From: an uncultured Gammaproteobacteria bacterium
GTDB lineage: Bacteria > Pseudomonadota > Gammaproteobacteria > Steroidobacterales > Rariloculaceae
Reading direction: 5' to 3'
Assembly: GCA_963817615.1 (NCBI GenBank)
Contig: CAWFPH010000003.1
Span: 30,718 to 94,717 of the forward strand
DNA: 64,000 nucleotides
In this document: positions 14,856 through 49,715 of the stretch, piece after piece
How positions within the stretch are numbered: position 1 is the stretch's first letter
Layout: the number at the start of each line of letters is the position of its first letter
Position numbers and translations under genes: made by a program
Notes under the pieces: generated by a model
The model's input: only the letters and a program-made list of their open reading frames with translations
Database searches by the model: none
Told to the model about the DNA's origin: nothing

Positions 14856-16353
14856 ATGGCAGAAGCAAAAACCGAAAAGGAAGGCGCGGCGCAGGCGCAA
14901 GAGTCGCTTGGGGCAGATGATTTCGCGCAGCTGCTAAAGAAGGAATTCCGCCCGAAGTCGGACCGCGCCCGCGAGCAGGTCGAAGCGGCCGTGCAAACCC
15001 TGGCTCAGCAAGTGCTGAGCGACCAGGATTTGATCCTCGACGACGCCGTCAACTCGATCAATGCGATCATCGCTGAAATCGATCTGAAGATGACGGAGCA
15101 GGTCAACCTGATCCTGCACCACCCGGAGTTCCAGCAGCTCGAGGGTGCCTGGCGCGGGCTGAGCTATCTCGTCAAGAACACCGAGACCGACGAGATGCTC
15201 AAGATCCGATTCATGCCCATTTCCAAAACGGAGCTGTCGAAGACACTCAAGAAGTTCAAGGGCGTTGCGTGGGATCAGAGCCCGCTGTTCAAGAAAGTTT
15301 ACGAGGAAGAGTACGGGCAGCTCGGCGGCTCACCGTTCGGCTGTCTCGTAGGCGACTATTCACTTCGACCATAGCCCGCCCGACGTCGAGATTCTTCAAG
15401 GGATGGCGCAGATCGCGGCCGCCGCGCATGCGCCGTTCATTGCCGGAGCGAGCCCGACCGTGATGCAGATGGACTCCTGGCAGGAGCTGACGAACCCGCG
15501 CGATCTGACGAAAATCTTCACGACGCCCGATTACGCGGCGTGGCGGTCGCTTCGCGAGTCCGAGGATTCGCGCTACATCGGTCTGGCCATGCCGCGGTTT
15601 TTGGCGCGGCTGCCCTATGGCGCGAAGACGGACCCCGTCGAAGAGTTCGATTTCGAGGAGGACATGCAGGGTTCCGACTCGAGCCGCTATGCTTGGGCGA
15701 ATTCTGCGTACGCGATGGCCGTGAACATCAACGCCGCATTCAAGCTGTACGGCTGGTGCTCGCGGATTCGCGGCGTCGAGTCGGGCGGCGCCGTCGAAGG
15801 ATTGCCCGTGCACACGTTTCCTTCGGACGACGGCGGCGTGGACATGAAGTGTCCGACCGAGATTGCGATCAGCGATCGTCGGGAAGCGGAGCTCGCGAAG
15901 AACGGGTTCATGCCGCTGATTCATCGAAAGAACACCGACATCGCGGCGTTCATCGGTGCTCAGTCGCTGCAAAAGCCCGCGCAGTACGAGGATCCCGACG
16001 CCACGGCCAACGCCGAATTGTCGGCGCGTCTGCCGTATCTGTTCGCGAGCTGCCGGTTCGCCCACTATTTGAAGTGCATCGTCCGCGACAAGATCGGCTC
16101 GTTCAAAGAGCGCGCAGACATGGAGAAGTATCTGAACGACTGGATTCTCCAGTACGTGGACGGTGATCCGGCAAACTCCACCGAGCAGGTCAAGGCGCGC
16201 AAGCCTCTGGCGGGAGCCGAGGTGACCGTCGAGGAGGTCGAAGGAAATCCAGGTTACTACACATCGAAGTTTTTCCTGCGGCCGCACTATCAGCTCGAAG
16301 GGCTGACAGTATCGTTGCGGCTCGTTTCGCGTCTGCCCTCGCAAAAGGGTTGA
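14856..16353 (+). pseudogene. tssC: TssC (VipB) large sheath subunit, 1 frame change
   Basis: ORFs 14856..15374 and 15403..16353 join into one TssC (ILHHPEFQQLEGAWRGLSYLV; MAQIAAAAHAPFIAGASP). The frame change near 15360 sits inside GDY-x-FDHSPPDVEIL. Confidence 0.9.
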
Positions 16354-21185: not shown

Positions 21186-23919
<2,734 letters not shown>

Positions 23920-24059
23920 CGGCGCCGGTGCGAGAAGTCTTGCGAGCCCCGGCAAGCGTTGCCTCCGTTACGCGCCGACGCCGAGGCGATTCGGCTTGGG
24001 GAAACTGCTCACCGAGATACAAGCGGCCACATACGCCGGGTGAGCGGCAACGGCTTGGG

Positions 24060-25529
24060 CTAGCCGTTTGCGATGGACGCAATCTCGTGCGCCGCGATGT
24101 AGTCGACGTTCGCGCCTCCCGCGAAAGCGATCAGGCCGCTCTGCCGCACGGCTGACTCGAGCTCGCTCGCTCAGCACGATCTCGACCGGTGGCTGAACGG
24201 CTTGCCCGCCGCCGTCGTCGTAGACGGGCATCGGCAGGTCGGGTACCTCGAGCGCGCCATGGAGCGGCCAACGCCGGCGGTCGGTCGCGGCTGCGGTGCC
24301 AGCAGATACGCGCACGCGAAGGCCGGGATTGGCCCACAGAAAATGCTCTTTGCCGGGTCGGACCGGCAGCTCACGGAACGCGAACGAGTCGATCGAGTCC
24401 GTGCGCTTACCGAACGGTTGGCGCAGCAGGAAACGCGGCGTCGCGAGGCCGATCCAATTCGCCGCCGGGTGGCTGCGCACGTCGTTCCACAGCTGCGCCA
24501 GGTCCGAGTCGGCTGCCCAGTCCCACGGCGCTGTCGGCGTCGGCATCGGAGCGGCAACCGCATAGGCTCAGGTCGCCGTGCGCGAGAAGCGGAATTTCCG
24601 CGCGCCCCGCGATCGCGCCAACCGTCGTGAGTAGCAGCAGGTCTTCGGGATTCAGACCGAAGGTGTAGTCGGTGACGATCGACGTCCCAGTTCGCGTCGT
24701 CGACGCGTCCGTCGAGCAGAACGGATAGGGGCGCCGTGCCGAGACTGGTGGAGTGCGCATCGAGCTCGGCGCGCAACGCATCCTTCGCAAGGTCGACGAC
24801 ATACAGCTCCGCTTGGTCCTCCTCGAGCCGGCTGACGAGCCAATGCACGCTGCGCCAAGCGCGCTCGATGTCGCGAAAGTCCGGATGCGTCAATACCGCC
24901 CGCATTGCGCCCGTCAGCACGTCGAGCGCCTGCTGCCGGCGTTGCTTCGCCGTTGCCGAAGAGGGGCGAGCGTGCTCCCGAGCCGAGCGCATCGCGGATC
25001 AGCGATTGAACGACCTGCTTCGCCTTGCCGCCCTGCCGCTCGGAGGACGCTGACCCAGCAGTCTTTCGAGCAATTGCGTCTCCATCTTCTCGGCCTCGAG
25101 CGTCCGATTGTTCGGCCGGCGCCCGCGTAGTGGCTTCGGCCTGGCCGCCGTAGCGGCGATCCCAGTCGCGGAGCGCGGTTTCCTCCGTGAGCGGGTTCTC
25201 GAGGCGCCCGTAAAAGGTCAACGAGCTCTTGAAGCGCGCCGATGGCGGCGACCAGACGGTCGGGATGGAAATCCTGCAGCGCCGCGATCGCGAGCTTTCG
25301 TGTATCGCCACGGGGCCGTCGAGGCCGAGCGGATGCGCGGGTCGAACGCGGCGATTACGTCATCCAGGCTCTCCACCGAGACGCGGCGCGGGACGAGTGA
25401 TTCGGTCGGGTTCGACAATCGGCCCGAAAGGCCCGCGAGGATCAGCACCTGCAGCGGTCGCTCGCGGCGCGCGGCGCGGACGCCGGATCCACGACCCAGA
25501 CTGACCTCTAGCTGCGCGCGTCCGCTCAT
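24060..25529 (-). pseudogene. sheath-like paralogue: TssB-like N-terminus fused to TssC-like body, at least 6 frame changes
   Basis: N-terminus RAQLEVSL...PLQVLILAGLSGR...RRVSVESLDDVIAAFDPRI...LQDFHPDRL parallels TssB. Next, VLTHPDFRDIERAWRSVHWLV parallels the TssC motif ILHHPEFQQLEGAWRGLSYLV. Then WIGLATPRFLLRQPFGKRTDSIDSFAFRE...HFLWANPAFACAYLL...LPMPVYDD. Pieced from ORFs 25218..25529, 24652..25311, 24171..24992, 24407..24802 and 23968..24546. Confidence 0.6.
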
Positions 25530-26127: not shown

Positions 26128-28359
26128 ATGAGCAGCCAGCCGGTCCGCGTAAAGACGCCCCTCGGAGAGGATCTTGCTGTTCAGCGGCATGGAGCTTACG
26201 GAGGAGCTTGCGCGCCTGTACTACTGCGAGCTCGATCTCTTGAGCGCGAAGGAGGACATCGAGCTCGACGACGTGCTCGGCAAGGACGTGACGGTCGAGA
26301 TCGATCAACCGGACGCGGACACGCGTTATTTTCACGGGATCGTCACGGAATTTGCGCAGACGGGTCGTGAGGGCGACTATGCGCGTACACGGCGATCGTG
26401 CGTCCGTCATTGTGGTTCCTGACTCGCACCGCGGACTGCCGTATCTTTCAGGAGCTCAAGGCTCCGGAGATACTCAAGGAGGTATTCGACGATCACGGAT
26501 TTCCCGTGAAGTTCTCCCTGAGTGCCACCTATCGGAAGTGGGAGTACTGCGTGCAGTACCGCGAGACCGACTTCAACTTCGTGAGTCGGCTCATGGAGCA
26601 GGAAGGCATCTACTACTTCTTCGAGTACGAGTCCGGGAAAGCACACATTGGTACTCGCAGATGCCTACGGTGCCCACAACGCCATTCCGGGGTACGCGAA
26701 GATTCCGTACTTTCCCACCGTCCGCGAACGTCGTCCGCGAGCTGCATATTTACGATTGGCATTTGCGGCGCTCGGTGCAGTCCGGGGCTTATGTGCTGAA
26801 CGCGTTCCACTTCAAGAAGCCGCGCGCGGATCTCAAGGCGAACAGCTCCGTGTCGCGCGACCATGCATTGGCGGAGCACGAGGTCTACGACTACCCGGGC
26901 GAGTATTACGAGAAGTCGGAGGGTAACGAATACGCGCGCACGCGCATCGAGGAGCTCCAAGCGCAGTACGAGCGCGTTCGGGGCCAGACCAACGTGCGTG
27001 CGCTGTTCCCGGGCGGTCTATTCGAGCTCACGGACTATCCGCGGAAGGACCAAAACCGCGAATACCTCGTCTTGTCGACGCGCCACAGCTTGCACCTCGG
27101 CGACTATGGCAGCGCGGGCGGCGAGGGGCTCACGTATAGCTGTACATTTTCGGCGATGAGCAGCCGCGAGCCGTTTCGGCCGGAGCGGACCTCTCCGAAG
27201 GTGTTCGTGCAAGGGCCTCAGACCGCGATCGTCGTCGGGCCCGTCCGGAGAAGAGATTCACACGGACGAGTTCGGCCGGGTGAAGGTGCAATTTCATTGG
27301 GATCGCTACGGCAAGTCCGACGAGAACAGCTCCTGCTGGATACGCGTGGCGTCGGTGTGGGCCGGTAAGCAATGGGGCGGCATCGCGATCCCGCGAATCG
27401 GCCAAGAGGTCATCGTCGACTTCATCGAAGGGGATCCGGATCGCCCGATCATCACGGGCCGCGTCTACAACGCCGACAACAAGCCGCCGTACGACTTGCC
27501 GGCGAACAAGACGCAGAGCGGCATGAAGAGCCGCAGCTCGAAGGGCGGCTCGCCGGCGAATTTCAACGAAATCCGCTTTGAAGATCTGAAGGGCTCGGAG
27601 GAGATGTACATCCACGCCGAGAAGAACCAGACGATCATGGTCGAGAACGACAAGGCGGAGACGGTCGGCCACGATAACACGGAGAGTATCGGTCACAATG
27701 AAAAGATCGACGTCGGGAACAATCGCGATAAGACGGTCGGCGTGGACCAGTCGGAGAAGATCGGCAGCAACAAGACCATCTCGGTCGGCTCGAACCATAC
27801 CGAGACGATCGGCGCCAACAAGAAGCTCGATGTCGGGAGTAATCACACCGAAACCGTTGGCTCGAACATGACGATCACCGTGGGCTCGAACCTCACGGAG
27901 ACGGTGGCGATCAACTATGCGGAAACGGTCGGCGCGGCCATGGAGCTTACCGTGGGTGCCGCAATGACCGAGACGGTCGGCGCGAACAAGACCCAGACGA
28001 TCGGCCACGACAAGTCCGAGACGATCGCCGCGAACAAGACCGTGAGCGTCGGCAAGGACGAATCGGTCACGATCGGCAAGAACGCCTCCGCGAGCATCGG
28101 CGAGTCGCGAACGTTGTCGGTCGCCAAGGATCAGAACGTCGACATCGGCAAGAATCTCGTGATCAACGCCGGTGACGCGATCACTATCCAGACCGGCAGC
28201 GCGACGATTTCGATGAAGAAGGACGGCACGATCTCGATCAAGGGCAAGGACATCACGATCGAAGGCAGCGGCAAGATCAACGTGAAGGCGTCCAGCGACG
28301 TCACGATCAAGGGATCGAAGAGTGCTGCAGAACTGATTGGACGAGTATGCGGAGGCTGA
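26128..28359 (+). pseudogene. vgrG: VgrG spike protein, about 6 frame changes
   Basis: Colinear VgrG sequence across 6 ORF pieces: RYFHGIVTEFAQTG; LWFLTRTADCRIFQ; YCVQYRETDFNFVSRLMEQEGIYYFFE; GPQTAIVVGP; GRVKVQFHWDRYGKSDENSSCWIRVASVWAGKQWGGIAIPRIGQEVIVDFIEGDPDRPIITGRVYN. A gp5-like beta-helix follows. Changes near 26168, 26385, 26645, 26715, 27245. A probable change near 28320 would give the typical end GSK-VLQN* at 28336. Confidence 0.9.
27658..28179 (+). repeat. VgrG beta-helix: degenerate tandem 24-nt (8-aa) coding repeats
   Basis: About 20 units of x-x-x-T/S-x-x-V/I-G (ETVGHDNT ESIGHNEK IDVGNNRD KTVGVDQS EKIGSNKT ISVGSNHT ETIGANKK ...). This is protein-structural periodicity, not a CRISPR array. 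Confidence 0.7.
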
Positions 28360-28363
28360 GGAG

Positions 28364-28878
28364 ATGAGTCCGTTGGGGTTGGATCAAGTCGAAGCGAGAG
28401 GAAACGATGCGGCGCAAGAGCCGGAGGTTGCGCCGGCCCAGGCTGACCGAATCGCCGGCGTAGTGCTCGGCACCTTGATCGGTTTCAAGGACGGCGGGCG
28501 AACGCCGCTCGTGTTGTTCCCCGGCCAGACGAGCAGCGGCGGCCGTCGCCGCGCGCACGACCGTCGACTTGCACGGTGCGCACATCGGCGGGCCGGTCGT
28601 GCTGATGTTCGAGAACGGCGAGCCGGATCGCCCGATCGTGCTGGGCCGGCTGCGTCAGGACGAGGGCTGGCCGCTCGACGAGCGGCCCGGAAGCGTCGAA
28701 GTGCAGGCCGATGGCGAGCGGCTCGTCGTCGGCGGCGAAGCAGCAGCTCGTGCTGCGCTGCGGCAGCGCGAGCATCACGCTGACCAGGGCCGGTAAGGTG
28801 CTGATCCAGGGGACGTTCGTGCTGCACCGCTCGTCGGGGGTGATGCGGATCAAGGGTGGGTCGATTCAGCTCAACTGA
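28364..28878 (+). pseudogene. DUF6484-like protein (PA0096-like position), 2 frame changes
   Basis: SD GGAGGCTGAGGAG then ATG. IAGVVLGTLIGFKDGGRTPLVLFPGQ / VDLHGAHIGGPVVLMFENGEPDRPIVLGRL / QQLVLRCGSASITLTRAGKVLIQG...IQLN*. Changes near 28540 and 28735. Confidence 0.6.
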
Positions 28879-28918: not shown

Positions 28919-30026
28919 GTGGAGCTCATCAACGCAACGCGGATGTTGGCCGGTTACACGATGGGCCTGGAGCCCAGCGGGCGCGAGCTGCTCGTCGTGG
29001 TGATCAAGGGAACGTTCCGTTTGCCCGTCAGCCGCCGAGGAGCAACTGCGACTGCACGAGGAGCAGCTGCCGCTCGTGATGGCCGACACGTTCACCGGTG
29101 CGCCGGGATTTCTCGGCCCGATGCACGAGGCGGACTTCGTGCCGCGCAAGAAACAGGTCGACGTACTTTTGCTCGGCAGCGCCTACGCGCCAGGCGGCCG
29201 GCCCGCAACGACGGTGCCGGTCGGACTGCGGGTGAACGGCATCACGAAGACGTTCGCCGTGGTCGGCGACCGGCAGTGGGATGCGGGCATCTCGGGTCTC
29301 GGCATCAGCCCGGCGCAGCCGTTCACGAAAATGCCGATCAGCTACGACCGCGCATTCGGCGGCGTGGATGACCGGAACGAGGACCCCGCGAAGCACGCGG
29401 CGTTCATGCGCAACCCGGTGGGCCGGGGGTTTCGCAAGCACTCCTCGAACGAGCTGCTGACCGGCACGCCGTTGCCGAATACGCAGGAGCTCAACCGCGC
29501 GGTGTCGAGCCCGGACGCCGACTACGCCCCGATGAGCTTCGGCCCGATCGGCCGCGGCTGGGAACCGCGCTACCGCTACGCCGGCACCTACGATGACGAG
29601 TGGCTCGAGAAGCACTTTCCGTTCTTGCCGCCCGACTTCGATGAGCAGTATTACCAGTCGGCGCCGCTCGACCAGCGCTTCGCAGGACCGTTGGGCGGCC
29701 ACGAAGTGACGCTCGTCAATCTCACGCCGGACGGCCGGCGCGAGCTTCAAGATCCCGGCGTTCGAGGCGCCGGTCGTGGTGTTCCCGAAGAGGGGCGAGC
29801 GCGAGGATCTCACCGCGACGCTCGACACGCTCGTGCTCGAGCCCGACGAGGAGCGGCTCACGATGACGTGGCGTCGTAGCGCGGCCGCTCAAGAGGAACA
29901 TGTTCGAGATCGCGCAGGTGCTCGTCGGCAAGAAGGGCAGGGAGTGGTGGCAGCTGCGGGAGGAGGTCACGTTTCCGATTCCCGATCGTGGTCGAGCCGA
30001 TGGTGCGGCCGACGGAAACCGCCTGA
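28919..30026 (+). pseudogene. DUF2169 family T6SS adaptor-like protein, about 4 frame changes
   Basis: GTG start, then (M)ELINATRMLAGYTMGLEPSGRELLVVVIKGTFRLP... and KKQVDVLLLGSAYAPGGRP...FAVVGDRQW, typical of DUF2169. Changes near 29035, 29740, 29875, 29985. Confidence 0.8.
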
Positions 30027-30036
30027 GCGTCAGCCG

Positions 30037-31068
30037 ATGCCTGCACCGCCCATTGCGATTCGCTCCGTCGGACTCGTCACCTCCGTCGGCTTGAGCGCGC
30101 CGGCGGCCTGCGCTGCGATGCGCTGCAAGATCAGCAACCCCAGCGAGACGCGGTTCATCGATTCGGCTGGCGAGTGGATCATGGCGCATAGCGTGCCGCT
30201 CGAGAACGCCGTGGCGCGGCTTGACAAAGCTCGCGAAGATGGCGGCGCTTGCTATCGATGAGTGTCTCTCCGAGGTTCCGCCGGAGAAATATGCCGCGTT
30301 GCCGTTGTTGCTCTGTGTCGCGGAGCGGGAGCGGCCGGGCCGGCTCGATGGACTCGACGATCGACTTTTCGACGACATTGCGAGCGGAGCTGAGATATGT
30401 GTTTCGCACGCGACGTCGGCCGTGATTGCGAACGGACGCGTGAGCGTTGCGGTTGCTCTCGCTCATGCGCGGCGAATGATCTCATGAGCAGCGAGTGCCG
30501 CAAGTACTTGATCGCGGCCACCGATTCGCTACTCACGTGGCCGACGTTGTCGCACTTCGAGCGCAACGATCGCTTGCTCACAGCGCAGAATTCGAACGGT
30601 TTCATGCCCGGAGAAGGGGCTGGCGCGTTACTCATCGCGGTGCCCAAGGGCGGAGAGGAGCTGCTCTGCACCGGACTGGGATTCGGCGTCGAGAAGGCGC
30701 ACATCGATTCGGGCGAGCCGTTGCGCGCCGATGGCCTCACGACAGCGGTCAAGGCATCGCTCGCGGACGCCGGGCGCAATATGCACGACTTCGATTTCCG
30801 GATCACGGACATCTCTGGGGAGCAGTACTACTTCAAGGAAGCGTCTCTGACGTTGGGTCGGACGCTCCGCAAGCGCAAGGAGGAATTCGACCTCTGGCAT
30901 CCCGCCGAGTGTATCGGAGAGAGTGGCGCCCTAGCCGGGATGCCGGTCGTGGGATTGGCTGACGCGGCGTGCCGCAAACGGTACGCGCCTGGTCCGAATA
31001 TCGTCGCTCACCTCGCGAACGACGCTGGCGAGCGTGCGTCCATGGCTCTCCAATTTCGCGCGAGCTAG
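30037..31068 (+). pseudogene. beta-ketoacyl-synthase-like (thiolase-fold) protein, PA0098-like, 2 frame changes
   Basis: MPAPPIAIRSVGLVTSVGLSAPAACAAMRCKISNPSETRF... is a KAS-type N-terminus. Later NGFMPGEGAGALLIA and ITDISGEQYYFKE...LWHPAECIGESGALAG. Changes near 30222 and 30480. Confidence 0.7.
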
Positions 31069-31070
31069 CG

Positions 31071-31314
31071 ATGGGCAACCAGGTCTACGCGAACACGATT
31101 GGAGATATGGTGCAAGGCCGCGACCGATCTGCAGCTTCCCGACGTGTGCCTCAGACCGGCCGCAGTTCCTGCGACTTCGCCGGGCGGGGCTTCGGATGCG
31201 ACGGACGGCTCGACAAGCGTGAAGAGCTCCGGTCAGGAGGTGATGCTCAAAAACAAGTCTCACTTCAAATGTCGCCTGTGTGATGACGGCGGGGGTGTGC
31301 CTTTGCGAAAGTGA
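31071..31314 (+). pseudogene. remnant of a DUF4150 (PAAR-like) gene N-terminus
   Basis: MGNQVYAN...(frame change)...KAATDLQLPDVCLRPAAVPATSPG--ASDATDGSTSVKSSGQEVMLKNKS aligns with residues 1 to about 85 of the intact gene at 31659 (MANKVFAN...KAASGKSICAFPDVCMTPPQTPATPPGVPIPYPNTALASDTTDGSSTVKISGQEVVLKNNS). It has an internal deletion and is truncated near 31310. Confidence 0.6.
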
Positions 31315-31605
31315 TGGGCTCGTGCACGCGATTAAAGACGCTCCGCCCGATGCACGATGCGACGCGCACGTCTTTTGGTTTCCGATTCCGGATATGTCGG
31401 GCGAACAGTACTACTTCAAAGAAGCGGTACGTGCTTGGGTTGCGTACTCCGACAGAAGAAGGCAAAAAAGGAGAAGTTCGATATCTGGCATCCGGCTGAA
31501 GCCATCGGCGAAACGGCTGCAATGATCGGTATTGTCGTGCTCGCCGTGGCCGATGCGGTCTGCCGCAAGGGCAATGCGCCGGGAGGCGACATACTGGCCC
31601 CGTAG
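31310..31605 (+). pseudogene. remnant of the C-terminal third of a KAS-like gene (second copy)
   Basis: DGLVHAIKDA...DMSGEQYYFKEA...KKEKFDIWHPAEAIGETAAMIGIVVLAVADAVCRKGNAPGGDILAP* aligns with DGLTTAVKAS...DISGEQYYFKEA...RKEEFDLWHPAECIGESGALAGMPVVGLADAACRKRYAPGPNIVAH of 30037..31068. Lacks an N-terminus and has at least 2 frame changes. Confidence 0.6.
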
Positions 31606-31658
31606 ATCGAACGACAGCAGCCTGCGCGCGCCATCGGTTTGGCGCTGAGGATTTCCGA

Positions 31659-32831
31659 TTGGCCAATAAAGTCTTCGCGAACAACATGGAAGTCGCCTGC
31701 AAGGCGGCAAGCGGTAAGTCCATTTGCGCCTTCCCGGACGTTTGCATGACTCCGCCGCAGACTCCCGCGACACCGCCGGGTGTGCCGATTCCGTATCCCA
31801 ACACAGCGCTCGCCTCGGATACGACAGACGGATCGAGCACCGTGAAGATTTCCGGCCAAGAGGTCGTACTCAAGAACAACTCCTGCTTGAAGCGAAGCAG
31901 CGGCGACGAAGCAGGTTGTGCCCCGCAGAAGGGGGTCATGAACAGTCAGAACATGGGCAAAGTTTTCTTCGTGCAGTGGTCGATGGATGTGAAAGTCGAA
32001 GGAGAGAATGTTGCGCGCCACCTCGATCTCACGACTCACAACCATGGTTCGAATGCGAACGAGGCGGCGCCTTGGCCCTATATCGATACACTGAACATGC
32101 CGGCGGACCATCCGTGCAAGAAGTCTGTGGATGAAGAGAAAGCAGCGTGTGATCCAAACAAGACTCCGCCTGGGTCCAGTGCAAGAGCGGATGGCCGGGG
32201 TTTGAATTGCACGCCGGCGTGCGCCAAGGCGAGGGCCTGTGCCTTGCCCAAGAAGAAGGATGACAAGAAGACTTGCTGCGCTCCTAATAGCACGGGAGAT
32301 CATCTGGTAGAGGTTGCCTCCTTCACACAAACCGGTGGGCGCGGCGGGCTGGACATCGGCTCCTTCGACAGCCTTGCGCAAGCCGGTATCTCCGTCTCAG
32401 CACCGAATCGTCCTGCGAGTACCGGCGGTTTCCAAGACTCGGTGGACCTCGCCAGCCCCAAGAGCAGACCCCGACGGTTGTCCGATTTCGAAGACTACGA
32501 CGACGAAGAAGCACCGACAGCGTGTGTACGACCGCCCGGAGCGGGCACGAACCACAATCGCATGCAGGCACACCGCGATTCGATTAAACGCAGCCATCGC
32601 ACCGGCAACGGCGGAGTGCCATTGCATGTATTCCCCACAGGCGAAGAGTCACATTGGACATACGACGATGCGGCCAAGGCAGGCGTGGCGTCGCACCAGC
32701 GCGAGAATCCGCATTGCAATCCGGAGTGCACGCGAAAGCAACTCGACGCGTATCACCATGAGGTGATTCCGGGAGACAAGCCAGCGGAGAAGAACGCGAC
32801 ACCAGTGCGGACTTACATCCCGAGGAATTGA
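31659..32831 (+). CDS. DUF4150 (PAAR-like) T6SS effector with C-terminal toxin domain, Tse7-like architecture
   Basis: Intact 390 aa. TTG start supported by a GAGGA SD 7 nt upstream and by homology with the ATG of the remnant copy. N-terminus is the DUF4150 PAAR-like fold (to about ...DLTTHNHGSN), followed by a Cys-rich linker. The C-domain has His-rich motifs (TGDHLVEV, NHNRMQAH). Confidence 0.8.
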   Translation: MANKVFANNMEVACKAASGKSICAFPDVCMTPPQTPATPPGVPIPYPNTALASDTTDGSSTVKISGQEVVLKNNSCLKRSSGDEAGCAPQKGVMNSQNMGKVFFVQWSMDVKVEGENVARHLDLTTHNHGSNANEAAPWPYIDTLNMPADHPCKKSVDEEKAACDPNKTPPGSSARADGRGLNCTPACAKARACALPKKKDDKKTCCAPNSTGDHLVEVASFTQTGGRGGLDIGSFDSLAQAGISVSAPNRPASTGGFQDSVDLASPKSRPRRLSDFEDYDDEEAPTACVRPPGAGTNHNRMQAHRDSIKRSHRTGNGGVPLHVFPTGEESHWTYDDAAKAGVASHQRENPHCNPECTRKQLDAYHHEVIPGDKPAEKNATPVRTYIPRN

Positions 32832-33736
32832 ATGTGATCTCATCATCCATCACAGATGGCATCTCGCTGGGGCCGGGACGGAGTGTCGTGGCGATTCAGC
32901 CCTACGATTCCGATGCGAGTGAAGTCGAGTTCGAAAGTATCGTGCTGATTGTCGCGGACGGGGAGGTGCGTTCGACTCTGAAACCACCGTTTGTGGTCTC
33001 GAGTATCGTCGAAAGTACGACAGGGGAAATATTGATGCTCGGTCGCTTGGGTCACGTCGCCTTGCTCACGAACGACGCGTTCGATGAAGAGCGGATCAGC
33101 GGCCCAGACGCGTTGGGTTTCCTCACCGACATTCGAGCTATTGGACAGGCAATCTACGCGACTGGAATGCGTCGCCAGGTGTACGTCCGCAAAGGAAGCA
33201 GTTGGACGAGGGCCGATGTAGGCGTTCGCGATGAGAGTAATAGCGTTGAGCACGTAACCGGGTTCCGCTCGATAGACGGGCCGTCGTCACAGGACATCTA
33301 CGCAGTCGGTCTAGATGGTGAGATATGGAATTGTCTCGCGGGTGTCTGGCAAGCAGTGCAGTCACCGACCAACGTGATCTTGGAACAGGTGCGGTTGGGT
33401 GGGCAGGGCGAAGTGTATGCAGCGGGACAGGCCGGCGTTCTCTTGCGTGGAGTACGGCATGCATGGTCCGTCATCGAGCAGCTGCAGACGGAGGAAGATT
33501 TCTGGGGGCTGGAGTGGTTCAACGGCGCTCTGTATGTTGCAACAGGAGCAGAAGTGTTTCGTCTGCTGCCGAGTGAGTCGCAATTGGCGCGCGTAGAGAC
33601 TGGCGGAGCTTCGTTCGCGAGGTTGCGAGCAGGGCACGCCGCGCTCTGGTCGTTCGGACCGGACGACGTCCGCTGGACCGCCGATGGCAGGACGTGGCAT
33701 CACGTGGCAATTCCAAAGGCCCATCGACTTCCGTAG
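32828..33736 (+). CDS. candidate cognate immunity protein (repeat-rich, possibly beta-propeller-like)
   Basis: 302 aa. Start overlaps the effector stop (TTGA). No signal peptide. Repeated D-I-Y-A-V/G-G...G-x-V/I-Y-A-x-G motifs suggest propeller blades. Low GC, like the effector. Confidence 0.55.
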   Translation: MNVISSSITDGISLGPGRSVVAIQPYDSDASEVEFESIVLIVADGEVRSTLKPPFVVSSIVESTTGEILMLGRLGHVALLTNDAFDEERISGPDALGFLTDIRAIGQAIYATGMRRQVYVRKGSSWTRADVGVRDESNSVEHVTGFRSIDGPSSQDIYAVGLDGEIWNCLAGVWQAVQSPTNVILEQVRLGGQGEVYAAGQAGVLLRGVRHAWSVIEQLQTEEDFWGLEWFNGALYVATGAEVFRLLPSESQLARVETGGASFARLRAGHAALWSFGPDDVRWTADGRTWHHVAIPKAHRLP

Positions 33737-33755
33737 CTATACATCAGAAAAGACA

Positions 33756-33840
33756 GTGATTTCACGCTCGCCGATCGCAACCGTTCTGACTCAGCATATT
33801 GCTGATGCAGCCGTGCTGTGGCAGCAGCGAAATGTAACTA
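33756..33840 (+). pseudogene. short remnant of a TIGR02270-family N-terminus
   Basis: VISRSPIATVLTQHIADAAVLWQQRNV aligns with AGCPIPTVASQHAEESVILRNVRSV at the start of the full gene about 190 nt downstream. The similarity then ends. Confidence 0.45.
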
Positions 33841-33943
33841 CTGATAATGCGAATGAGGATCCACGAATCGAAGACGTCTGCCGAGCGCTTCGTTGTCCCA
33901 ACTTGCGCCTATCTCGTGCTCGAAACCTGGAATGTTGAGCCCA

Positions 33944-35212
33944 ATGCCCCATCCCACAGCAGGATGTCCGATTCCGACTGTAGCCTCTCAGCACGCCGAG
34001 GAATCGGTGATCTTGCGCAATGTCCGCTCGGTCCTGGTGAACTCCGCGCACGTGCGGCTGCTGCACCTCCTCCGGCTCGACAACCGACTTGCTGCTCATC
34101 TCGATGGATTGGCGGTGACAGCCGAGTTTGGCTGGAGCGTGTGCGAGGCTCAACTTGACGTCCCGAGTATCGGTTCGCTATTCGTGGCGACACAGCGCGC
34201 TATCCAAGATGCCGACTCTTCGAGGCTCGAACGATTCCTTCGACTTGGAGAGACGGTATCGGTGCTGGAGCCAGGCCTTGTTTCGGCTTTCGGCTGGACA
34301 TCCGCACAATTCCTACGCGGCACGGTCAAGGCCCTGCTTGAATCCTCTACTACTTTCCGTCGTCGCGTCGGCATTTCCGCGTGCGCCATGCACGCAGTCC
34401 ACCCCGGTGCCCCTCTTGACGCAGCTCTGCGAGACCCTGACACTGCCCTACGTGCGCGCGCACTGCGCGCAATCGGCGAGCTCGGTAGGCTGGATTTGAG
34501 CACCGCCGTGCGGCGCGCAGTCGATGACCCCGACGAGACCTGCCGCTATTGGGCCGCGCGGTCCGCTGTTTTGCTCGGTGACCGCGGCAAAGGGCTCAAC
34601 CTGTTAATCGGCGGGTGTCGAGCACCGGGACCGTGTCGCGAGAGTTCGCTTCACCTTGCGCTACGTGCGATGGAGTTGCCTGCCGCGCGCGAGTTACTGC
34701 GCCTCATCAGCAGCGAGCCGAAAGACGTACGAGCACTCATCGAGGCCGCAGGCATCGTCGGCGATCCGCACTACGTGCCCTGGCTCATCAAGCAGATGGG
34801 CGACCCGAAGCTCAGCCGCCTCGCCGGCGAATCGTTTTCGCTCATCACTGGGCTCGATCTGGCGTATCTAGATCTCGATCGCCGCCCCCCCGAGGGCGAA
34901 GAGCTCGGACCGACGGCGGATCCAGACGACGAGAACGTCGCAATGGACCCGGATGAAGGGCTGCCGTTGCCCGACCCCGAAAAACTCGCCAAATGGTGGG
35001 AGGCGAACCGGCACGCATTCGCCGTCGGCACACGCTACTTCATGGGCCGGCCGCTCAGTCGGGAACACTGCCTGCAAGTGCTCAAAGAGGGTTTCCAGCG
35101 CCAGCGCGCTGCGGCCGCGCTCTATCTATCGTTGCTGCAACCGGGAACGCCGTTGTTCAACTGGCGCGCGCCGGCGTGGCGGCAGCAACGCTGGCTTGCG
35201 AGTATGCGTTGA
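33944..35212 (+). CDS. TIGR02270-family (HEAT-like repeat) protein, PA0101-like position
   Basis: ORF 33893..35212. The start is probably ATG 33944 (MPHPTAGCPIPTVASQHAEE...). LDNRLAAHLDGLAV and repeated D-P-D-x-x-x-R...A motifs are typical of this family. Intact. Confidence 0.7.
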   Translation: MPHPTAGCPIPTVASQHAEESVILRNVRSVLVNSAHVRLLHLLRLDNRLAAHLDGLAVTAEFGWSVCEAQLDVPSIGSLFVATQRAIQDADSSRLERFLRLGETVSVLEPGLVSAFGWTSAQFLRGTVKALLESSTTFRRRVGISACAMHAVHPGAPLDAALRDPDTALRARALRAIGELGRLDLSTAVRRAVDDPDETCRYWAARSAVLLGDRGKGLNLLIGGCRAPGPCRESSLHLALRAMELPAARELLRLISSEPKDVRALIEAAGIVGDPHYVPWLIKQMGDPKLSRLAGESFSLITGLDLAYLDLDRRPPEGEELGPTADPDDENVAMDPDEGLPLPDPEKLAKWWEANRHAFAVGTRYFMGRPLSREHCLQVLKEGFQRQRAAAALYLSLLQPGTPLFNWRAPAWRQQRWLASMR

Positions 35213-35328
35213 CTGGTGACGACGCTCGTGGGCCATCGACCTAGGTTTCGCACCGGCCAACCGTTACCCTTGCAGCCGATGTTGGCAACAGCGAGTCGCT
35301 CATTCGGATTGATCGTTGCGAGGCAAAC

Positions 35329-35518
35329 GTGCTGACAGCGCCGGCCGTCCCCGTCGTCTTCGTCGCCATCGCGGTGATCTTCGTGACCCTCGCGCTGCGC
35401 GATTTTCTCAAAGGCGAGTCGAAGCTGAGCCCCGCACGCAGCGCCTGGCTGCGCGTTGCGACGATTTTCGCCGTGATCGCGATTGCGCTCGTTCATCGTG
35501 AACACGTTCATGAGTTAA
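35329..35518 (+). CDS. small two-TM membrane protein (3' end uncertain)
   Basis: GTG start with GAGG 5 nt upstream. MLTAPAVPVVFVAIAVIFVTLAL...AWLRVATIFAVIAIALV gives two hydrophobic helices. This frame has no stop until 36279, but coding signal moves to the 35537 frame. The end given assumes a frame slip to TAA at 35516-35518. Confidence 0.3.
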
Positions 35519-35536
35519 CGGATCCGAGAGGCGAAG

Positions 35537-36279
35537 ATGGGTGGAAAGACACCTGGCCCGGTCGGCCAAACCGACAAGGCGCAAGACATCGACGATGGCA
35601 CGCTGGCGCGCACGAGCACGCCGAAGCCGGGTCCCAACAATGGGGCAGCGGGGCAAACCGCCGCCACGGACCACGCGCTGTCCGTGCCGCTCGACGTCTA
35701 TCTGATCAATCTCCAGATCGTCGCCGAGGAGATCGAGAGCTACGAGGTCTCGGTCGGGAAGGAGAAACGGACGCAGCGAAGGAAGGTTCGCAAGGTCGTC
35801 GAGACGGTGAAGAGCGGTCAAACCGAAGAGACGATCAATGCTTCGATCGCCCGTGCCAACGAGATCTGGAAACAGGCCGGTATCGCATTTCGACTACATC
35901 AACTCGTGCCGAAAGACGTCGAGTTCGACACGAAGACGGTGAGCGAGGAGGGTTTTCTGTCGCTGGTTGCCAGCTTGAAGCTGCCGGCCTGCCGGGACTC
36001 AGCATGATGTTCGTGCGGAATTTCGAGAGCCCGCATCTCGGCGGCCAGGCCGTGGACTCGCTCGGCGCGGGAATCGTGACCTATTTGGGGAATCCGACGC
36101 AGGGCAACACCCTGGCTCACGAGCTTGGCCATCTGCTTGGGCTGCCCGACCTGAAGCACGTCGCAAACTCGATCAAGAACCGCTACAACTTGATGTACGA
36201 GGCCAGCGCGGCGGGGTACGAGATCACGGCCGACCAGGCGAAGACCGCAGTGGAGAGAGCCAAGCTAAAGCAGAATTAG
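35537..36279 (+). pseudogene. zinc metallopeptidase-like protein with HExxHxxGxxD (snapalysin-type) motif, 1 frame change
   Basis: ATG with a GAGAGG SD and an in-frame TAA just upstream. MGGKTPGPVGQTDK... has no signal peptide. After a change near 35990 it reads MMFVRNFESPHLGGQAV...GNTLAHELGHLLGLPDLKH...*. Confidence 0.55.
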
Positions 36280-36445: not shown

Positions 36446-37798
36446 ATGCCGCTCGTGTTGCGAGTCTTGAGTTCGCAGAACCACACGACGGCTTTCGACG
36501 GCGCGAAGACCTTCGAGACGGACGGGACCATCGGCCGGACGGTCGACAACGATTGGGTGCTGCCCGATCCTGAACGTTTCATCTCGAGCCGCCACGCGGC
36601 GATCAGTTATGAAGGCGGGCGCTACTTCATCAACGATCGCAGCACGAACGGCATTGGCCGTCAACGGCCGCGAGATGGAGAAGGGCGGCCGTCTCGAGCT
36701 CAAGATCGGGCGACCACATGACCATCGGCGGCTATCAGATTGCCGTCTCGGTCGAGGGTCCGGTTGCGCCGGGGCCGATCGGCGCTGCATTCGCCTCGGC
36801 TCCTCCGCCGGCCTCGATCGACGACATTTTTTCGGACCCCAACCCTTTCGCGGCTACTCGCGAGGCGCCAATGCCTCGATCCGCTGGTGGCGCTCGGCGG
36901 CGCGGAAGGGCCGCGTCCCAGTGCCGCGCCGGCGCCGCGTACGGTGGACGATCATCCCGCGCGGAGTCGGAGTTCTTCGAGCCGCCGCGCATGATCAAAG
37001 CGCCGCCACCGGCCAGGCGGCCGGCAGAGATTCCGGAGGACTGGGACTCAACGGGCTTCTCGGCGGCCGCGGCCGGCTGCGCCCTCGGGCGCGCCGACCG
37101 AACCTCCCGCTCCGCCGCCCCCGCACGGCGCTTCGACGCCTCCCCCTGCGGACTGGGCCGCCGAGCAAACTCCGTCGCCGCCGCCGGCGAGAACGATGGC
37201 CTCCCCGGCACAGCCGGTCGATGTCTCGGGCTTGCTGCGGGCTGCGGGCATCGATCCCGCCGCGGCCGATCCAGCGCTAGTAGCGTCTCTCGGCGAGGTG
37301 CTGCGAGTCGTCGTCGAGGGCTTGATGGGCGTGCTCAAGGCGCGTGCGGAGATCAAGAATCAGTTCCGGGTTGCGATGACGACGCTGAAGCCGCTCGACA
37401 ACAACCCACTGAAGTTCTCCGTGGACGCAAACGACGCTCTGTTCAATTTGTTCGGAAGAAAAACAGCTAGTTTTCAGTCACCTGTAGATGCTTTCAGAGA
37501 TGCGTTCGAAGATCTAAAGGCGCATCAAATGGCAATGATGGCGGGTATGCGGGCGGCATTCACGGAGCTGATGGGGCGGTTCGATCCCGATCAGTTGCAG
37601 GAGGCTTTCGACCGCGGAATGAAGCGCGCTGCGATCCTCGATGTCATCAACCGGACGAAGTATTGGGACCTCTATCGAGAGATGTACAAATCGCTCGGCG
37701 ACGACGATTCGAGCTTCAGACGGCTGTTCGGCGACGAGTTCGCTCAGGCGTACGAGGAGCAGATGCAGCGTCTTACGGCGCTGCGCAGAAGGCGGTAA
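36446..37798 (+). pseudogene. tagH: Fha/TagH FHA-domain T6SS scaffold protein, 3-5 frame changes
   Basis: FHA core GTIGRTVDNDWVLPDPERFISSRHAAISYEGGRYFINDRSTNG, then AVNGREMEKGGRLELKIG, then HMTIGGYQIAVS, a Pro-rich linker with IPEDWD, and an intact C-domain (ORF 37196..37798). Changes near 36655, 36712, about 37065, and perhaps 36870 and 36960. Confidence 0.8.
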
Positions 37799-46072: not shown

Positions 46073-47891
46073 GCGCATTTCTTCTGTCGAACGTTTCCTG
46101 CGCGGCGAGCTCACGCTCGCCGACCTCGAGCCGATTCTGCGGTCGGCCGCCACGTCGCAGGCTGCCGGGGACAGTGCCGCGGTTGCGCGCTACCTAGACG
46201 AGCTCTATCAGTCCGGCCGGCTGCCGTTGCAAGTCCATGCTTCGCTGATGGCGGCGGTTGCGGTCTCCGCGGACGGCACGGTGCGGCGTCACGCTGCCGA
46301 GCAGCAAGCGGCAGATTCGACGCGGATCGGCTCCCCGCCGGAGGAGCGTACGCGGATGGCGGCCTCCGGGCCGCACACGCCCGTTCAAGCAGCCTGGGAG
46401 CCGACGCGTGTCCGGCTGCCAGACGGGCAAAGCCACGTCGAGCCCGCGATCGATTCCACGCGCGTTCGGCGACCGGAGACGGCCGAGGAGAGCCTGCGCT
46501 GGCAGACATCGGTGGTCGAGCGCACGGCCGGCCCGGGTGCGGCGACGATGCCGACGTCGACTGGATCGAACTGGGCGCACCCCGAGCAATGGACGCAGCG
46601 ACACGAAGGACCACTCGGCCCAGGCTCGGTGATCAAGGAGCGGTTCGTATTGGAGTCCGTGCTAGGTCAGGGAGGCATGGGCGTCGTCTACAAGGCGCTC
46701 GACCGCCGCAAGCAGGAGGCGCGCGACCGCGATCCGTACGTCGCGCTCAAGATTCTCAACGAGGAATTCCGCCAACACCCCGATTCCCTCATCGCGTTGC
46801 AGCGCGAGGCCGTCAGAGCGCAGACGCTGTCACATCCGAACATCATCAACGTGTTCGATTTCGATCGCGACGGCACCGTCGTGTTCATGCCGATGGAGCT
46901 GCTCGAAGGCCAGCCGCTCAACCGCCTGATCTCTGCGAACAAGACGGCCGGCGTCGCCAAGGAACGAGCCGTGGCGTTGATTCGCGCAATGACCGAGGCG
47001 CTCGCGTACGCGCACAAGAAGGGGATCGTGCATTCGGACCTCAAGCCGAGCAACGTGTTTTTGACGCGCACCGACGAGATCAAAGTGCTCGACTTCGGAA
47101 TCGCGCGCGCGGTGACCACGGATCTGCGGCCGGCGGCGGACGACACGGTGTTCGATGCGGCCAAGCTCGGTGCGCTGACACCCGCGTATGCGAGCGCGGA
47201 AATGCTACGCGGAGAGCCGCCGCTTCCGGCGGACGATGTGTTCGCGCTCGGAGTCATTGCGTACGAGCTTTTGAGCGGTCGTCATCCGTTCGATCGTGAG
47301 CCGGCAGACGCCGCTCGCATGCGCGGGTTGACTGCCGCGCCCCTCACCGGCGTCACGCGCCGTCAGCGCAAGGCAATCGCCAAGGCGCTATCGCTCGAGC
47401 GGTCCGACCGTCAACCCGACGCGCGTTCGTTCCTTCGCGAATTCGAGGGCCCGACGCCGATTCGCAAGTCCGTCTACGCAGCGATCGGCGTCTTGGCCAT
47501 CGCGCTGCTCTACGCGCTTTATCTCAATTTGCAGGTCAGGCCGGACGTTCCGTTCGAAAGTCTGTCGACGCAGGACCAAGAGCGCTTTCTCGACGCCGTC
47601 GCGCACGGCGACGCCGCCCTGCGGATCGGTGACACGACGTTGGACGATGCGCTCGAAGCCTACTCCACGGCGTATGAGATACATCGAAACAATCCGGCTG
47701 CCATTGCAGGGCTCGAAGAGGTCGCGAAACGTACTCTCGCGGCCATGGCAGTGAACGACCACAACCAGCAGGAACGCGCTGTCCGGCGTCTTTTTTGCCA
47801 GGAGTACTTGTCCACGTATAGGCCGGTGGTGCGCGCTTGCGAGGCCGTGCACGGTGCGCCGTGCTCGGCCCAAGCCATGCGCTGCGACTGA
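46065..47891 (+). CDS. ppkA: Hanks-type Ser/Thr kinase (PpkA-position), atypical architecture
   Basis: Intact 608 aa, with an 8-nt overlap with the preceding gene. The kinase domain is central (GQGGMGVVYKA, VALKIL, HSDLKPSNVF, DFGIAR) and follows an N-terminal extension of about 190 aa. One TM helix (VYAAIGVLAIALLYALYL), then a C-terminal domain of about 110 aa. Confidence 0.85.
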   Translation: MDERISSVERFLRGELTLADLEPILRSAATSQAAGDSAAVARYLDELYQSGRLPLQVHASLMAAVAVSADGTVRRHAAEQQAADSTRIGSPPEERTRMAASGPHTPVQAAWEPTRVRLPDGQSHVEPAIDSTRVRRPETAEESLRWQTSVVERTAGPGAATMPTSTGSNWAHPEQWTQRHEGPLGPGSVIKERFVLESVLGQGGMGVVYKALDRRKQEARDRDPYVALKILNEEFRQHPDSLIALQREAVRAQTLSHPNIINVFDFDRDGTVVFMPMELLEGQPLNRLISANKTAGVAKERAVALIRAMTEALAYAHKKGIVHSDLKPSNVFLTRTDEIKVLDFGIARAVTTDLRPAADDTVFDAAKLGALTPAYASAEMLRGEPPLPADDVFALGVIAYELLSGRHPFDREPADAARMRGLTAAPLTGVTRRQRKAIAKALSLERSDRQPDARSFLREFEGPTPIRKSVYAAIGVLAIALLYALYLNLQVRPDVPFESLSTQDQERFLDAVAHGDAALRIGDTTLDDALEAYSTAYEIHRNNPAAIAGLEEVAKRTLAAMAVNDHNQQERAVRRLFCQEYLSTYRPVVRACEAVHGAPCSAQAMRCD

Positions 47892-47959
47892 GCCGTGCTT
47901 CGTCGCGGTGCGCAGTTCGAGGCAAAATGCGCCTCTCGTTGCGACGTCCGGCCGTTCGT

Positions 47960-47988
47960 TTGACATCCAATTTGTCGAGCATTAGTGT
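47960..47988 (+). promoter_or_regulatory. sigma70-type promoter candidate for the 48.0-55.4 kb operon
   Basis: TTGACA (47960-47965), 17-nt spacer, TAGTGT (47983-47988), within a locally AT-richer stretch. Confidence 0.4.
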
Positions 47989-48034
47989 GCTTGGGCCGAA
48001 CAAACAAAAATCCAAACCGCGGGCCACTTCTCCC

Positions 48035-49666: not shown

Positions 49667-49715
49667 AGCTTCGTTGCCACTCGAGAACGACTTCAGTGAC
49701 AAAGGAACGATAGTC

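Follow-up and report, generated by a model that had tools for sequence, protein, structure and literature searches.

Does the 390-residue protein encoded within this 64,000-nucleotide stretch of gammaproteobacterial DNA (the window) carry a toxin of a new kind, and is it still served by a working T6SS? The original prediction described a Tse7-like PAAR (DUF4150) effector with a divergent, unassigned C-terminal toxin domain. Here, we explored the gene, its product and its surroundings, and consider it very probable that it is a specialised T6SS effector of the Tse7 family, with a PIPY cap, a Tox-GHH2 nuclease domain and an adjacent immunity gene, probably stranded in a decaying cluster.

The Effector Gene and Its Locus

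The open reading frame stands as first proposed (table 1): a GAGGA Shine-Dalgarno sequence lies at 31647-31651, 7 nt upstream of the TTG, and the alignment with homologues, several of which also have non-ATG starts, begins at residue 1. An exact look-up of the protein returned no record. The DUF4150 PAAR-like cap is confirmed by PF13665 (116 bits, cut-off 31; E=1e-33), and the P(I/V)P(Y/F) motif of PAAR-like DUF4150 domains, as defined for the PIPY group (PMC11883445), is present as P43-I44-P45-Y46. Both vgrG and the DUF2169 gene lie upstream on the same strand, the linkage expected of PIPY proteins, and both are frameshifted. The complete order, vgrG, DUF6484, DUF2169, PRK06147-like, PIPY effector, immunity and HEAT/TIGR02270, holds all seven genes of the PA0095-PA0101 "synteny type A"/Tvp arrangement, with which it is identical (PMC11883445), and agrees with two of the loci compared, L006 (P. 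chlororaphis) and L009. The neighbours had been named correctly from the outset, and the last of them matches the TIGR02270 profile with 316 bits (cut-off 206.8) as well as HEAT_2. A promoter and terminator scan of 30900-35500 gave nothing above shuffled controls.

From what is known of the family, the PAAR-like/PIPY cone would cap the tip of the cognate VgrG trimer, and the DUF2169 protein would act as a loading chaperone together with the PRK06147-like and DUF6484 proteins. A genome-collection scan for close relatives returned only two loci, which have the PAAR domain in common with the effector (66% identity over residues 1-159) and carry different toxins, showing modular exchange.

Table 1. 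Features of the effector locus (positions in the window)
Feature	Position	Strand	Description
vgrG spike gene	26171..28359	+	About four frame pieces
DUF6484 (TvpC-like) gene	28337..28875	+	At least two frame pieces
DUF2169 (TvpA) chaperone gene	28919..29962	+	Four frame pieces
Resident PRK06147 (KAS-like, TvpD-type) accessory gene	30052..31068	+	Three frame pieces
Degraded N-terminus of an older PAAR-like effector	31099..31308	+	39% identical to a homologue by tblastn (E=3e-10)
Second PRK06147-like gene, 3' fragment, degraded and frameshifted	31310..31596	+	Aligned to residues ~231-323; cassette-replacement scar
Effector gene	31659..32831	+	390 aa, TTG start, TGA stop; PAAR-like/PIPY cap fused to Tox-GHH2 toxin
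PAAR-like (DUF4150/PIPY) domain	31719..32051	+	Residues 21-131; PF13665
Cys-rich N-terminal part of toxin domain	32106..32291	+	Residues 150-211; outside the Pfam model, conserved
G213-D214-H215	32295..32303	+	Counterpart of family s[AGP]HH; H215 putative general base, D214 putative metal ligand
Insertion	32337..32477	+	Residues ~227-273 (~47 residues), loop between two core strands; splits the Pfam Tox-GHH2 match
H299-N-R-M-Q303	32553..32567	+	Counterpart of family HxxxH, on helix 298-316; Q303 in place of His
Probable immunity gene	32834..33736	+	300 aa, GTG start 2 nt past the effector stop; GAGGA 32822-32826
TIGR02270/HEAT-repeat gene	33893..35212	+	Probable start ATG 33932; last gene of the synteny type, conserved

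The Toxin Domain Belongs to Tox-GHH2

The C-terminal domain had been called divergent and unassigned, and this part of the prediction has to be given up. A profile search returned Pfam Tox-GHH2 (PF15635) above its gathering score of 25, the full protein scoring 33.9 bits and residues 136-390 alone 35.1. The Pfam match seems partial because the loop that follows the catalytic His holds an insertion of some 47 residues, modelled by AlphaFold2 with a pLDDT of 75-88; once residues 227-273 are deleted, the score is 35.7 bits over profile positions 2-122, the match runs end to end from T212, and GDH is aligned with the family GHH at the profile start. The apparent divergence is accounted for by this insertion together with a sub-family variant of the active site, GDH...HxxxQ for GHH...HxxxH. 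More than 100 full-length homologues have both domains, and precomputed annotation places PF15635 in the effector itself and in 109 of its 120 best homologues; no NCBIfam family matches the effector. Judged from its sequence, the domain is thus Tox-GHH2, a large, curated Pfam family with a characterised member, Tse7, and with PF13665 and PF15635 joined in a PA0095-PA0101-type locus the Tse7-like designation holds.

The model of residues 136-390 is one compact domain with a pLDDT of 94.3. In its predicted secondary structure, residues 212-215 form a strand that terminates with H215, residues 286-290 form another, and a helix (298-316) bears H299 and Q303, an order of elements that fits a ββα metal finger. 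The HNH/EndoVII (His-Me finger) character foreseen for the domain is supported, on the Pfam assignment, that of Zhang et al. and this predicted order of elements rather than on three-dimensional superposition. One could argue instead for a novel, unassigned fold with a superficial HNH likeness, given that, despite the confident model, Foldseek found no match in PDB or in the viral models of BFVD (best E=3 and 0.4), and that searches with either the protein or a 101-sequence profile gave no PDB sequence match for the toxin domain, the single match being the PAAR-like N-terminus of 8qjc. Against an above-threshold match to a large family with a characterised member, we regard such a novel fold as highly improbable.

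A Cys-Rich Scaffold

The toxin domain extends beyond the Pfam model. The Cys-rich stretch preceding GDH, initially taken for a linker with eight Cys, contains seven (C153, C164, C184, C188, C194, C206 and C207) and is integral to the toxin domain: six of them do not vary in 120 homologues, and the model places the region within the toxin fold (pLDDT 97-98). In all, nine Cys never vary among the 120 closest homologues; these probably hold structural zinc, and the Cys-rich region would thereby provide a structural metal scaffold. The C-terminal 255 residues would thus form a compact, Cys-rich domain around a Tox-GHH2 His-Me-finger (HNH/EndoVII-type) nuclease core.

An Asp/Gln Variant of the Active Site

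The motifs lie where they had been placed, GDH at 213-215, GTNHNRMQAHRD at 296-307 and AYHH at 364-367. The published Tox-GHH2 signature of the HNH/EndoVII fold comprises s[AGP]HH and HxxxH (PMC3482391, Zhang et al. 2012). Neither is reproduced exactly in the effector: T-G-D-H at 212-215 keeps the second His, presumably the general base, with Asp for the first, and the second motif ends in Gln. This is no private feature. Position 214 is Asp in 58 and His in 62 of 120 homologues, in all of which H215 and H299 are invariant. Among 189 relatives, the residues at 214 and 303 pair as H/H (107), D/Q (61), D/H (3), D/S (2), D/N (1) and E/S (1); His at 214 never occurs with a non-His at 303, and all D-type members have Gln at 303 save a few with His, Ser or Asn. 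GDH is therefore, on these alignments, the mark of a coherent sub-family and not a lone oddity. A neighbour-joining tree would require about seven switches between the two states, as if D/Q had co-evolved repeatedly and independently, but we rejected this reading since a nearest-neighbour analysis separates the classes fully, each having its nearest neighbours exclusively within itself. The pairing may reflect shared ancestry.

How would such a site work? The general base would be H215, with which the first core strand ends. D214, H299 and Q303 would coordinate the catalytic metal, in the places taken by three His in canonical members such as Tse7. A harder site, of the Mg2+ type, is suggested by this Asp/His/Gln combination. 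Since two of the three predicted ligands depart from the published signature, the sub-family might have lost or changed its catalysis and be a toxin that binds DNA but is inactive, or an RNase, or a nuclease using another metal; the Pfam score of D/Q-type members, about half that of the H/H type (34-37 vs 62-64 bits), and the loop insertion adjoining the active site fit such a change. We found in the literature neither nuclease activity shown for a D/Q-type member nor experimental work on D/Q-type homologues. However, the putative general base and H299 are invariant, a dedicated immunity gene is kept in every locus examined, and the domain is strongly conserved, with pN of 0.14 vs pS of 0.80 between the effector and a 78%-identical homologue, synonymous sites being saturated at this distance and dN/dS therefore uninformative on recent relaxation of selection. 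The effector departs from consensus at one of 90 highly conserved columns. Moreover, Asn, Asp, Glu or His is accepted before the catalytic His in His-Me-finger nucleases (PMC10902643), and Asp is normal there in Tox-DHNNK, Tox-EHHH and the "DH...Q" of NGO1392-like toxins (PMC10902643, PMC3482391). Lost or altered catalysis thus appears distinctly unlikely, and we retain the Tox-GHH2 nuclease.

The Downstream Partner

The gene that follows the effector matches no Pfam or NCBIfam family. Its product is modelled as a seven-bladed β-propeller (pLDDT 95.5; TM about 0.69 to Nup43/RACK1). Homologues 31-56% identical are found in four of the loci compared (L003, L006, L008 and L009) and in 41 database entries, as expected of an immunity partner, and the gene adjoins effectors of both the D/Q and the H/H type. 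The 300-residue propeller is, on its model and its setting, the likely immunity protein, and this translationally coupled partner would most likely bind the toxin and block it in producing cells and their kin.

Probable Replacement and Decay in the Cluster

The delivery genes are in a different state. VgrG, DUF6484, DUF2169, PRK06147, ClpV, TssC, TssF, Hcp, TssA and TssM are frameshifted, with about three frame changes in VgrG, at least one in DUF6484, three in DUF2169, two in PRK06147 and four in ClpV, so that the spike and accessory genes lack the intact frames of a functional system. Examples of the frameshift sites are 15352-15374, 22094-22099, 22310-22326, 27166-27275, 29029-29052, 30173-30207 and one near 41800. 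The effector and its partner had been counted among the few T6SS-linked genes without a frame change. Both are indeed intact beside many broken neighbours, but "few" was overstated, as the TIGR02270 gene, TssB, TssE, TssG, TssJ, TssK, TssL, TagF-PppA and PpkA also read through. In the same vein, we discarded selective preservation of the effector-immunity module: the module is conspicuous for its intact frames only in comparison with the neighbouring 10 kb and not with the cluster-wide rate, and an intact stretch of 3.5 kb is not unusual (P~0.13, estimated from ~20 shifts in 35 kb).

Immediately upstream of the effector, 31099-31596 forms a replacement scar. Its first part, the PAAR remnant, aligns to residues 10-91 of a homologue and is without the PIPY segment. 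Its second part, the PRK06147-like fragment, has a GC3 of 0.58-0.67, like the effector module. An arrival of this fragment with the present effector cassette was considered and rejected, since the PRK06147 gene beside the nearest effector homologue resembles it no more than others do, and shares no DNA similarity with it. By these comparisons, the scar is old.

Are the frame changes real? They are strongly clustered, at least 13 falling in 21.2-31.1 kb with TssJ, TssK, TssL and TagF-PpkA intact, a pattern unlike uniform neutral decay, and the broken genes are still highly similar to intact homologues (ClpV pieces 59-89% identical). Sequencing or assembly errors, for example in a low-coverage or chimeric region of a metagenome-assembled genome (MAG), could produce this picture over an H1-like T6SS that is fully functional and whose Tse7-type effector is active. 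Yet homopolymers, checked as a sign of sequencing error, were absent from the frameshift junctions, and the flanking non-T6SS and housekeeping genes give complete domain matches over ~30 kb, with no splits. An inverted tssC relic, the PAAR remnant and the PRK06147 fragment likewise speak of a real history. An intact system disguised by such errors is accordingly an unlikely reading, if one of some weight. Provided that the frameshifts are real, the effector-immunity pair is probably a module that, following an earlier swap of effectors, was left stranded as the cluster decayed.

Comparison with Known Carriers and Nucleases

The closest characterised counterpart is Tse7 (PA0099) of the P. aeruginosa H1-T6SS, whose immunity protein is Tsi7 (PA0100). 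Compared by description, the two share the DUF4150/PIPY cap, the C-terminal Tox-GHH2 domain and the gene order; Tse7 has HH (residues 229-230, substituted in its catalytic mutant), whereas the present effector has D-H with HxxxQ, about 47 extra residues in a core loop and frameshifted delivery genes. Nearer in sequence, the PAAR-like P0022 of P. chlororaphis (CP118153, locus L006) is 54% identical over its full length and has GDH...HxxMQ and a loop insertion. Its locus has identical synteny, including the same two genes after the effector, the partner and TIGR02270, but, unlike the present one, is intact. Other D/Q-type homologues, for example in a Nitrosospira MAG and a Gemmatimonadota MAG, also lie in intact loci and are uncharacterised.

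In the colicin E7 and E9 DNases a metal ligand stands directly before the general-base His and the next helix carries two more, separated by one helical turn, and the predicted site of the effector has the same layout. There is no sequence or fold match to these colicins, however; the present scaffold is much larger and Cys-rich, and its immunity protein is a β-propeller and not a small helical Im. The Tox-ColE7 signature reads HH, H, H (PMC3482391, Table 2). That of NGO1392-like toxins and T4 endonuclease VII reads CxxC, DH, CxxC, Q (PMC3482391, Table 2). The latter group and the effector have in common an Asp-His pair on the catalytic strand, an amide ligand and clustered Cys, but in the effector the Cys are spaced CxxxC (184/188 and 353/357), and the likeness is best read as an analogy for a working D/Q site. 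Agrobacterium Tde2 and V2c, Salmonella TseV and Vibrio VP1415 have the same DUF4150/PIPY cap and dependence on a DUF2169 chaperone, with C-terminal toxins that differ from the present one (Ntox15, Tox-SHH, VRR-Nuc).

As a tentative proposal, which we think possible without holding it likely, the D214/Q303 group could be a functionally distinct Tox-GHH2 branch, in which a joint change from His, His to Asp, Gln turned a colicin-like His3 transition-metal site into an EndoVII-like Mg2+ site, on a Cys-rich, probably zinc-stabilised 255-residue scaffold with an unusually large β-propeller immunity protein, the pair persisting after T6SS decay in the manner of an addiction module.

Overall, the effector is an ordinary member of the Tse7 family, already known to Pfam, and carries little weight as a discovery. 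Its value lies with the family: the published signature (s[AGP]HH, HxxxH) misses about a third of it, which has DH...HxxxQ, and this sub-family scores near the Pfam threshold, so that PF15635 is absent from the annotation of some full-length homologues (11 of the best 120). The toxin domain begins about 60 residues before the Pfam model does and takes in an invariant Cys cluster, in a family with no solved structure for any member, and a seven-bladed propeller is predicted for its cognate immunity protein. The locus itself would record an effector swap, marked by the PAAR and PRK06147 scar, and then a decay of the delivery genes with the toxin-immunity pair intact.

Effector and toxin domain

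The open reading frame of the Tse7-like effector, as the original prediction had drawn it, was recovered intact, with a GAGGA Shine-Dalgarno sequence 7 nt 5' of the start codon; homologue alignments begin at its residue 1, and some homologues use GTG. The proposed DUF4150 PAAR-like cap corresponds to residues 21-131 (PF13665, Tox-PAAR-like/DUF4150; E=1e-33 in Pfam), a match that excludes a chance open frame in this 65% G+C genome, and the motifs named beforehand lie at 213-215 (GDH), 296-307 (GTNHNRMQAHRD) and 364-367 (AYHH). Just 1 of 90 highly conserved columns departs from the family consensus, and thus the effector bears no sign of decay. Two related loci (L001, Pseudomonadota MAG; L002, Ketobacter sp. 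MAG; 10001-10477) have only the PAAR-like part in common with it (residues 1-159, 66% identity); therefore, the same cap is fused to other C-terminal toxins elsewhere.

The C-terminal toxin domain had been regarded as unassigned. A profile search against the Pfam toxin families instead matched it to Tox-GHH2 (PF15635), at 33.9 bits for the full protein and 35.1 bits for residues 136-390 alone, above the curated cut-off of 25 bits. In the native protein, just profile positions 29-122 are aligned, to residues 277-366, so that the match seems partial. When residues 227-273 are left out, the alignment spans positions 2-122 and starts from T212; therefore, the GDH of the effector sits where the family has GHH. 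The profile is also matched end to end by a short-loop homologue of the D type (P0034) and by two homologues with His at both positions 214 and 303 (H/H type; P0063 and P0082, 62-64 bits). By sequence criteria, the toxin domain is thus a Tox-GHH2 domain interrupted by an insertion of ~47 residues. Searching 5.8 billion proteins with the effector gave 2,688 matches among the candidates scored; the best 120 are all near full length, and 109 of these carry both PF13665 and PF15635 in precomputed annotation, and the effector itself is annotated in the same way. A filter-free search restricted to the toxin region yielded 74 representative clusters at 50% identity, which points to a real toxin family of moderate size.

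Active site

The published definition of Tox-GHH2 (Zhang et al. 2012, PMC3482391, Table 2) combines an HNH/EndoVII fold with two motifs, s[AGP]HH and HxxxH. Among 120 effector homologues, H215 and H299 are invariant and position 213 is G, P or A, matching the published signature, while position 214 carries D (58) or H (62), and position 303 mostly Q (56) or H (62). Across 189 sequences, distant representatives included, the 214/303 pairs are H/H (107), D/Q (61), D/H (3), D/S (2), D/N (1) and E/S (1), His214 never being combined with a non-His303. The nearest neighbour of every D/Q sequence is D/Q and that of every H/H sequence is H/H; on this pattern the effector is a member of a coherent D/Q sub-family. 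Several switches between the two types were hinted at by a neighbor-joining tree, which we did not judge robust given the full separation of the classes by nearest neighbours. Tse7 of P. aeruginosa, in contrast to the D214-H215 of the window effector, has HH at the catalytic strand, and the catalytic mutant in use is HH229-230AA. In a study of Agrobacterium His-Me-finger effectors (PMC10902643), Asn, Asp, Glu and His are given as options for the metal-binding residue that precedes the invariant catalytic His; other HNH toxin families have DH or [ED]H, one of them "DH ... Q" (PMC3482391). In the effector, H215 would act as general base, and D214, H299 and Q303 would hold the catalytic metal. 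The metal site of colicins E7 and E9 is formed by three His, and that of T4 endonuclease VII by Asp/Asn. By analogy with these enzymes, a site built with D and Q may be of the Mg2+ type.

Predicted structure

AlphaFold2 predicted residues 136-390 (101 aligned sequences) as one domain (mean pLDDT 94.3, pTM 0.89), with a strand at 212-215 ending at H215, a second strand at 286-290, and a long helix at 298-316 with H299 at its start and Q303 one turn on. The order of these predicted elements is compatible with a beta-beta-alpha metal finger whose hairpin loop is very long. Residues 150-211 had been described as a linker with eight Cys; we count seven, six of them invariant in the 120 homologues (as are C289, C353 and C357), and the segment is modeled at pLDDT 97-98. 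It lies outside the Pfam Tox-GHH2 model and is integral to the toxin domain; structural zinc is probably bound in this Cys-rich domain. Foldseek found no similar structure to the model in PDB (best E=3) or BFVD, and PDB searches by sequence and by profile retrieved 8qjc alone, for the PAAR-like part. As PDB holds no solved structure for any member of the toxin family, the fold is assigned from curated family membership and from the order in which the elements follow one another.

Probable immunity partner

The partner most likely starts at the GTG listed in the table, with the same Shine-Dalgarno spacing as the effector. No Pfam or NCBIfam family matched it, and its 41 homologues are ~300 aa long. 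At 31-56% identity, it lies directly 3' of the effector in every related locus examined, beside D/Q-type effectors (L003, L009 and the Pseudomonas chlororaphis locus L006, CP118153) and one H/H-type effector (L008). It diverges faster than the toxin (54% versus 78% identity in the same locus pair). AlphaFold2 gave an all-beta model (pLDDT 95.5), for which Foldseek retrieved seven-bladed propellers (Nup43, RACK1, designed WD40-like proteins; TM about 0.69, E down to 5e-9); the partner is thus confidently predicted as a seven-bladed beta-propeller. Its size is large for an immunity protein. We infer an immunity role from its position, coupling and conservation.

Locus order and probable decay of the cluster

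Coordinates of the features in the window
Feature	Position	Strand	Description
T6SS cluster	about 13.2-47.9 kb		whole H1-like cluster: TssA, B, C, Hcp, E, F, G, ClpV, Fha, TssJ, K, L, M, TagF-PppA, PpkA
Sheath-like ORFs	23968-24992	-	between clpV and vgrG
PAAR-like remnant	31099-31308		degraded N-terminal part without PIPY segment, between PRK06147 and effector
PRK06147-like fragment	31310-31596		frameshifted 3' fragment of a second gene, directly after PAAR remnant, just 5' of effector
Effector	31659-32831	+	TTG start, 390 codons, TGA stop
Low-GC3 segment	31659-34552		effector, partner, first half of TIGR02270
Partner	32834-33736	+	GTG start at 32834, 300 aa, 2 nt after effector stop, GAGGA + 7 nt
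Out-of-frame stretch	33757-33840		about 150 nt 5' of TIGR02270 protein start
TIGR02270	33893-35212		NCBIfam
HELGH ORF	35329-36279		between TIGR02270 and fha; motif at its end (~35929-36279)
Fha	36609-37798		T6SS_FHA_C domain in ORF 36995-37798
Flank proteins	47822-51383		directly 3' of ppkA

The expected PA0095-PA0101-type locus was confirmed: NCBIfam assigns TIGR02270 (316 bits, cut-off 206.8) and, 5' of the effector, PRK06147, and tblastn with proteins of the intact P. chlororaphis locus (TssF, TssG, ClpV, VgrG, DUF6484, DUF2169, PRK06147-like, effector, partner, HEAT) found all of them in unchanged order. This arrangement, shared with P. aeruginosa, has been termed "synteny type A" (Sachar et al. 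2025) and, in a 2026 paper, the Tvp accessory cluster. Here the PIPY cap has DUF2169 as its chaperone, and a pre-complex of DUF6484 with the PRK06147-like protein is predicted.

Between ~13200 and 44400, at least 20 frame changes are spread over ClpV (5 pieces), VgrG (about 4), DUF2169 (4), PRK06147 (3), TssF (at least 3), DUF6484 (at least 2), TssC (2), TssM (at least one shift), and Hcp and TssA, which are fragments; the reading frames of TssB, E, G, J, K, L, TagF-PppA and PpkA are unbroken. No homopolymers were found at the junctions, and ~30 kb of flanking non-T6SS genes are intact with complete domain matches; we therefore favor real pseudogenes over random sequencing error, although the frame changes could also stem from a local assembly problem. 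The 3.5-kb effector-immunity-TIGR02270 stretch has no frameshift. Given about 1.4 frameshifts per kb in the neighbouring 10 kb, this is unusual (P~0.007); given about 0.6 per kb over the whole cluster, it is not (P~0.13; both our estimates from counts). Fha is represented only by its C-terminal domain. The overlapping ORFs 5' of it gave no FHA domain match; the gene is therefore probably truncated or frameshifted.

Other ORFs were observed in and beside the cluster. The two between clpV and vgrG match separate parts of the TssC/VipB sheath profile (158-271 and 10-65) and resemble what would remain of a second sheath gene after inversion and breakage. The ORF with the zincin-like HELGH motif, whose upstream part seems out of frame, has weak metallopeptidase matches (M66, M6, reprolysin), all under cut-off, and could be the remnant of a toxin or a metallopeptidase gene that has been broken. 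Beyond ppkA, two proteins follow, one of 614 aa with Sel1 repeats and a caspase domain (Peptidase_C14) and one of 628 aa with an autotransporter beta-domain.

Probable cassette replacement and implications

GC3 is 0.64-0.71 from the effector to the first half of TIGR02270, versus 0.78-0.88 in neighbouring T6SS genes and 0.87 in flanking genes, consistent with horizontally exchanged cargo whose right-hand junction falls within TIGR02270. Together with this shift, the PAAR remnant and PRK06147 fragment suggest that an older replacement of the effector cassette left a scar here; such replacement is documented at the P. aeruginosa PA0099 locus (homology-facilitated illegitimate recombination). This scar is old, since the PRK06147 gene beside the nearest effector homologue is no more similar to the fragment than other PRK06147 genes are. 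A short stretch out of frame (PIATVLTQHIADAAVLWQQRN...) has weak similarity to the TIGR02270 N-terminus (36% over 28 aa); recombination may have left it as a duplicated 5' end.

Overall, domain membership, conservation pattern, synteny, predicted folds and frame state are established here. Beyond these results, the PIPY cap would sit on VgrG, aided by DUF2169, the effector would be delivered into neighbouring cells, its toxin domain would cleave DNA in a metal-dependent manner with H215 as base, and the propeller partner would inhibit it; today, the pair would be stranded. What remains distinctive of the effector is its sub-family active-site variant and loop insertion, both already present in dozens of database proteins, including those of P. 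chlororaphis and of Nitrosospira and Gemmatimonadota MAGs.
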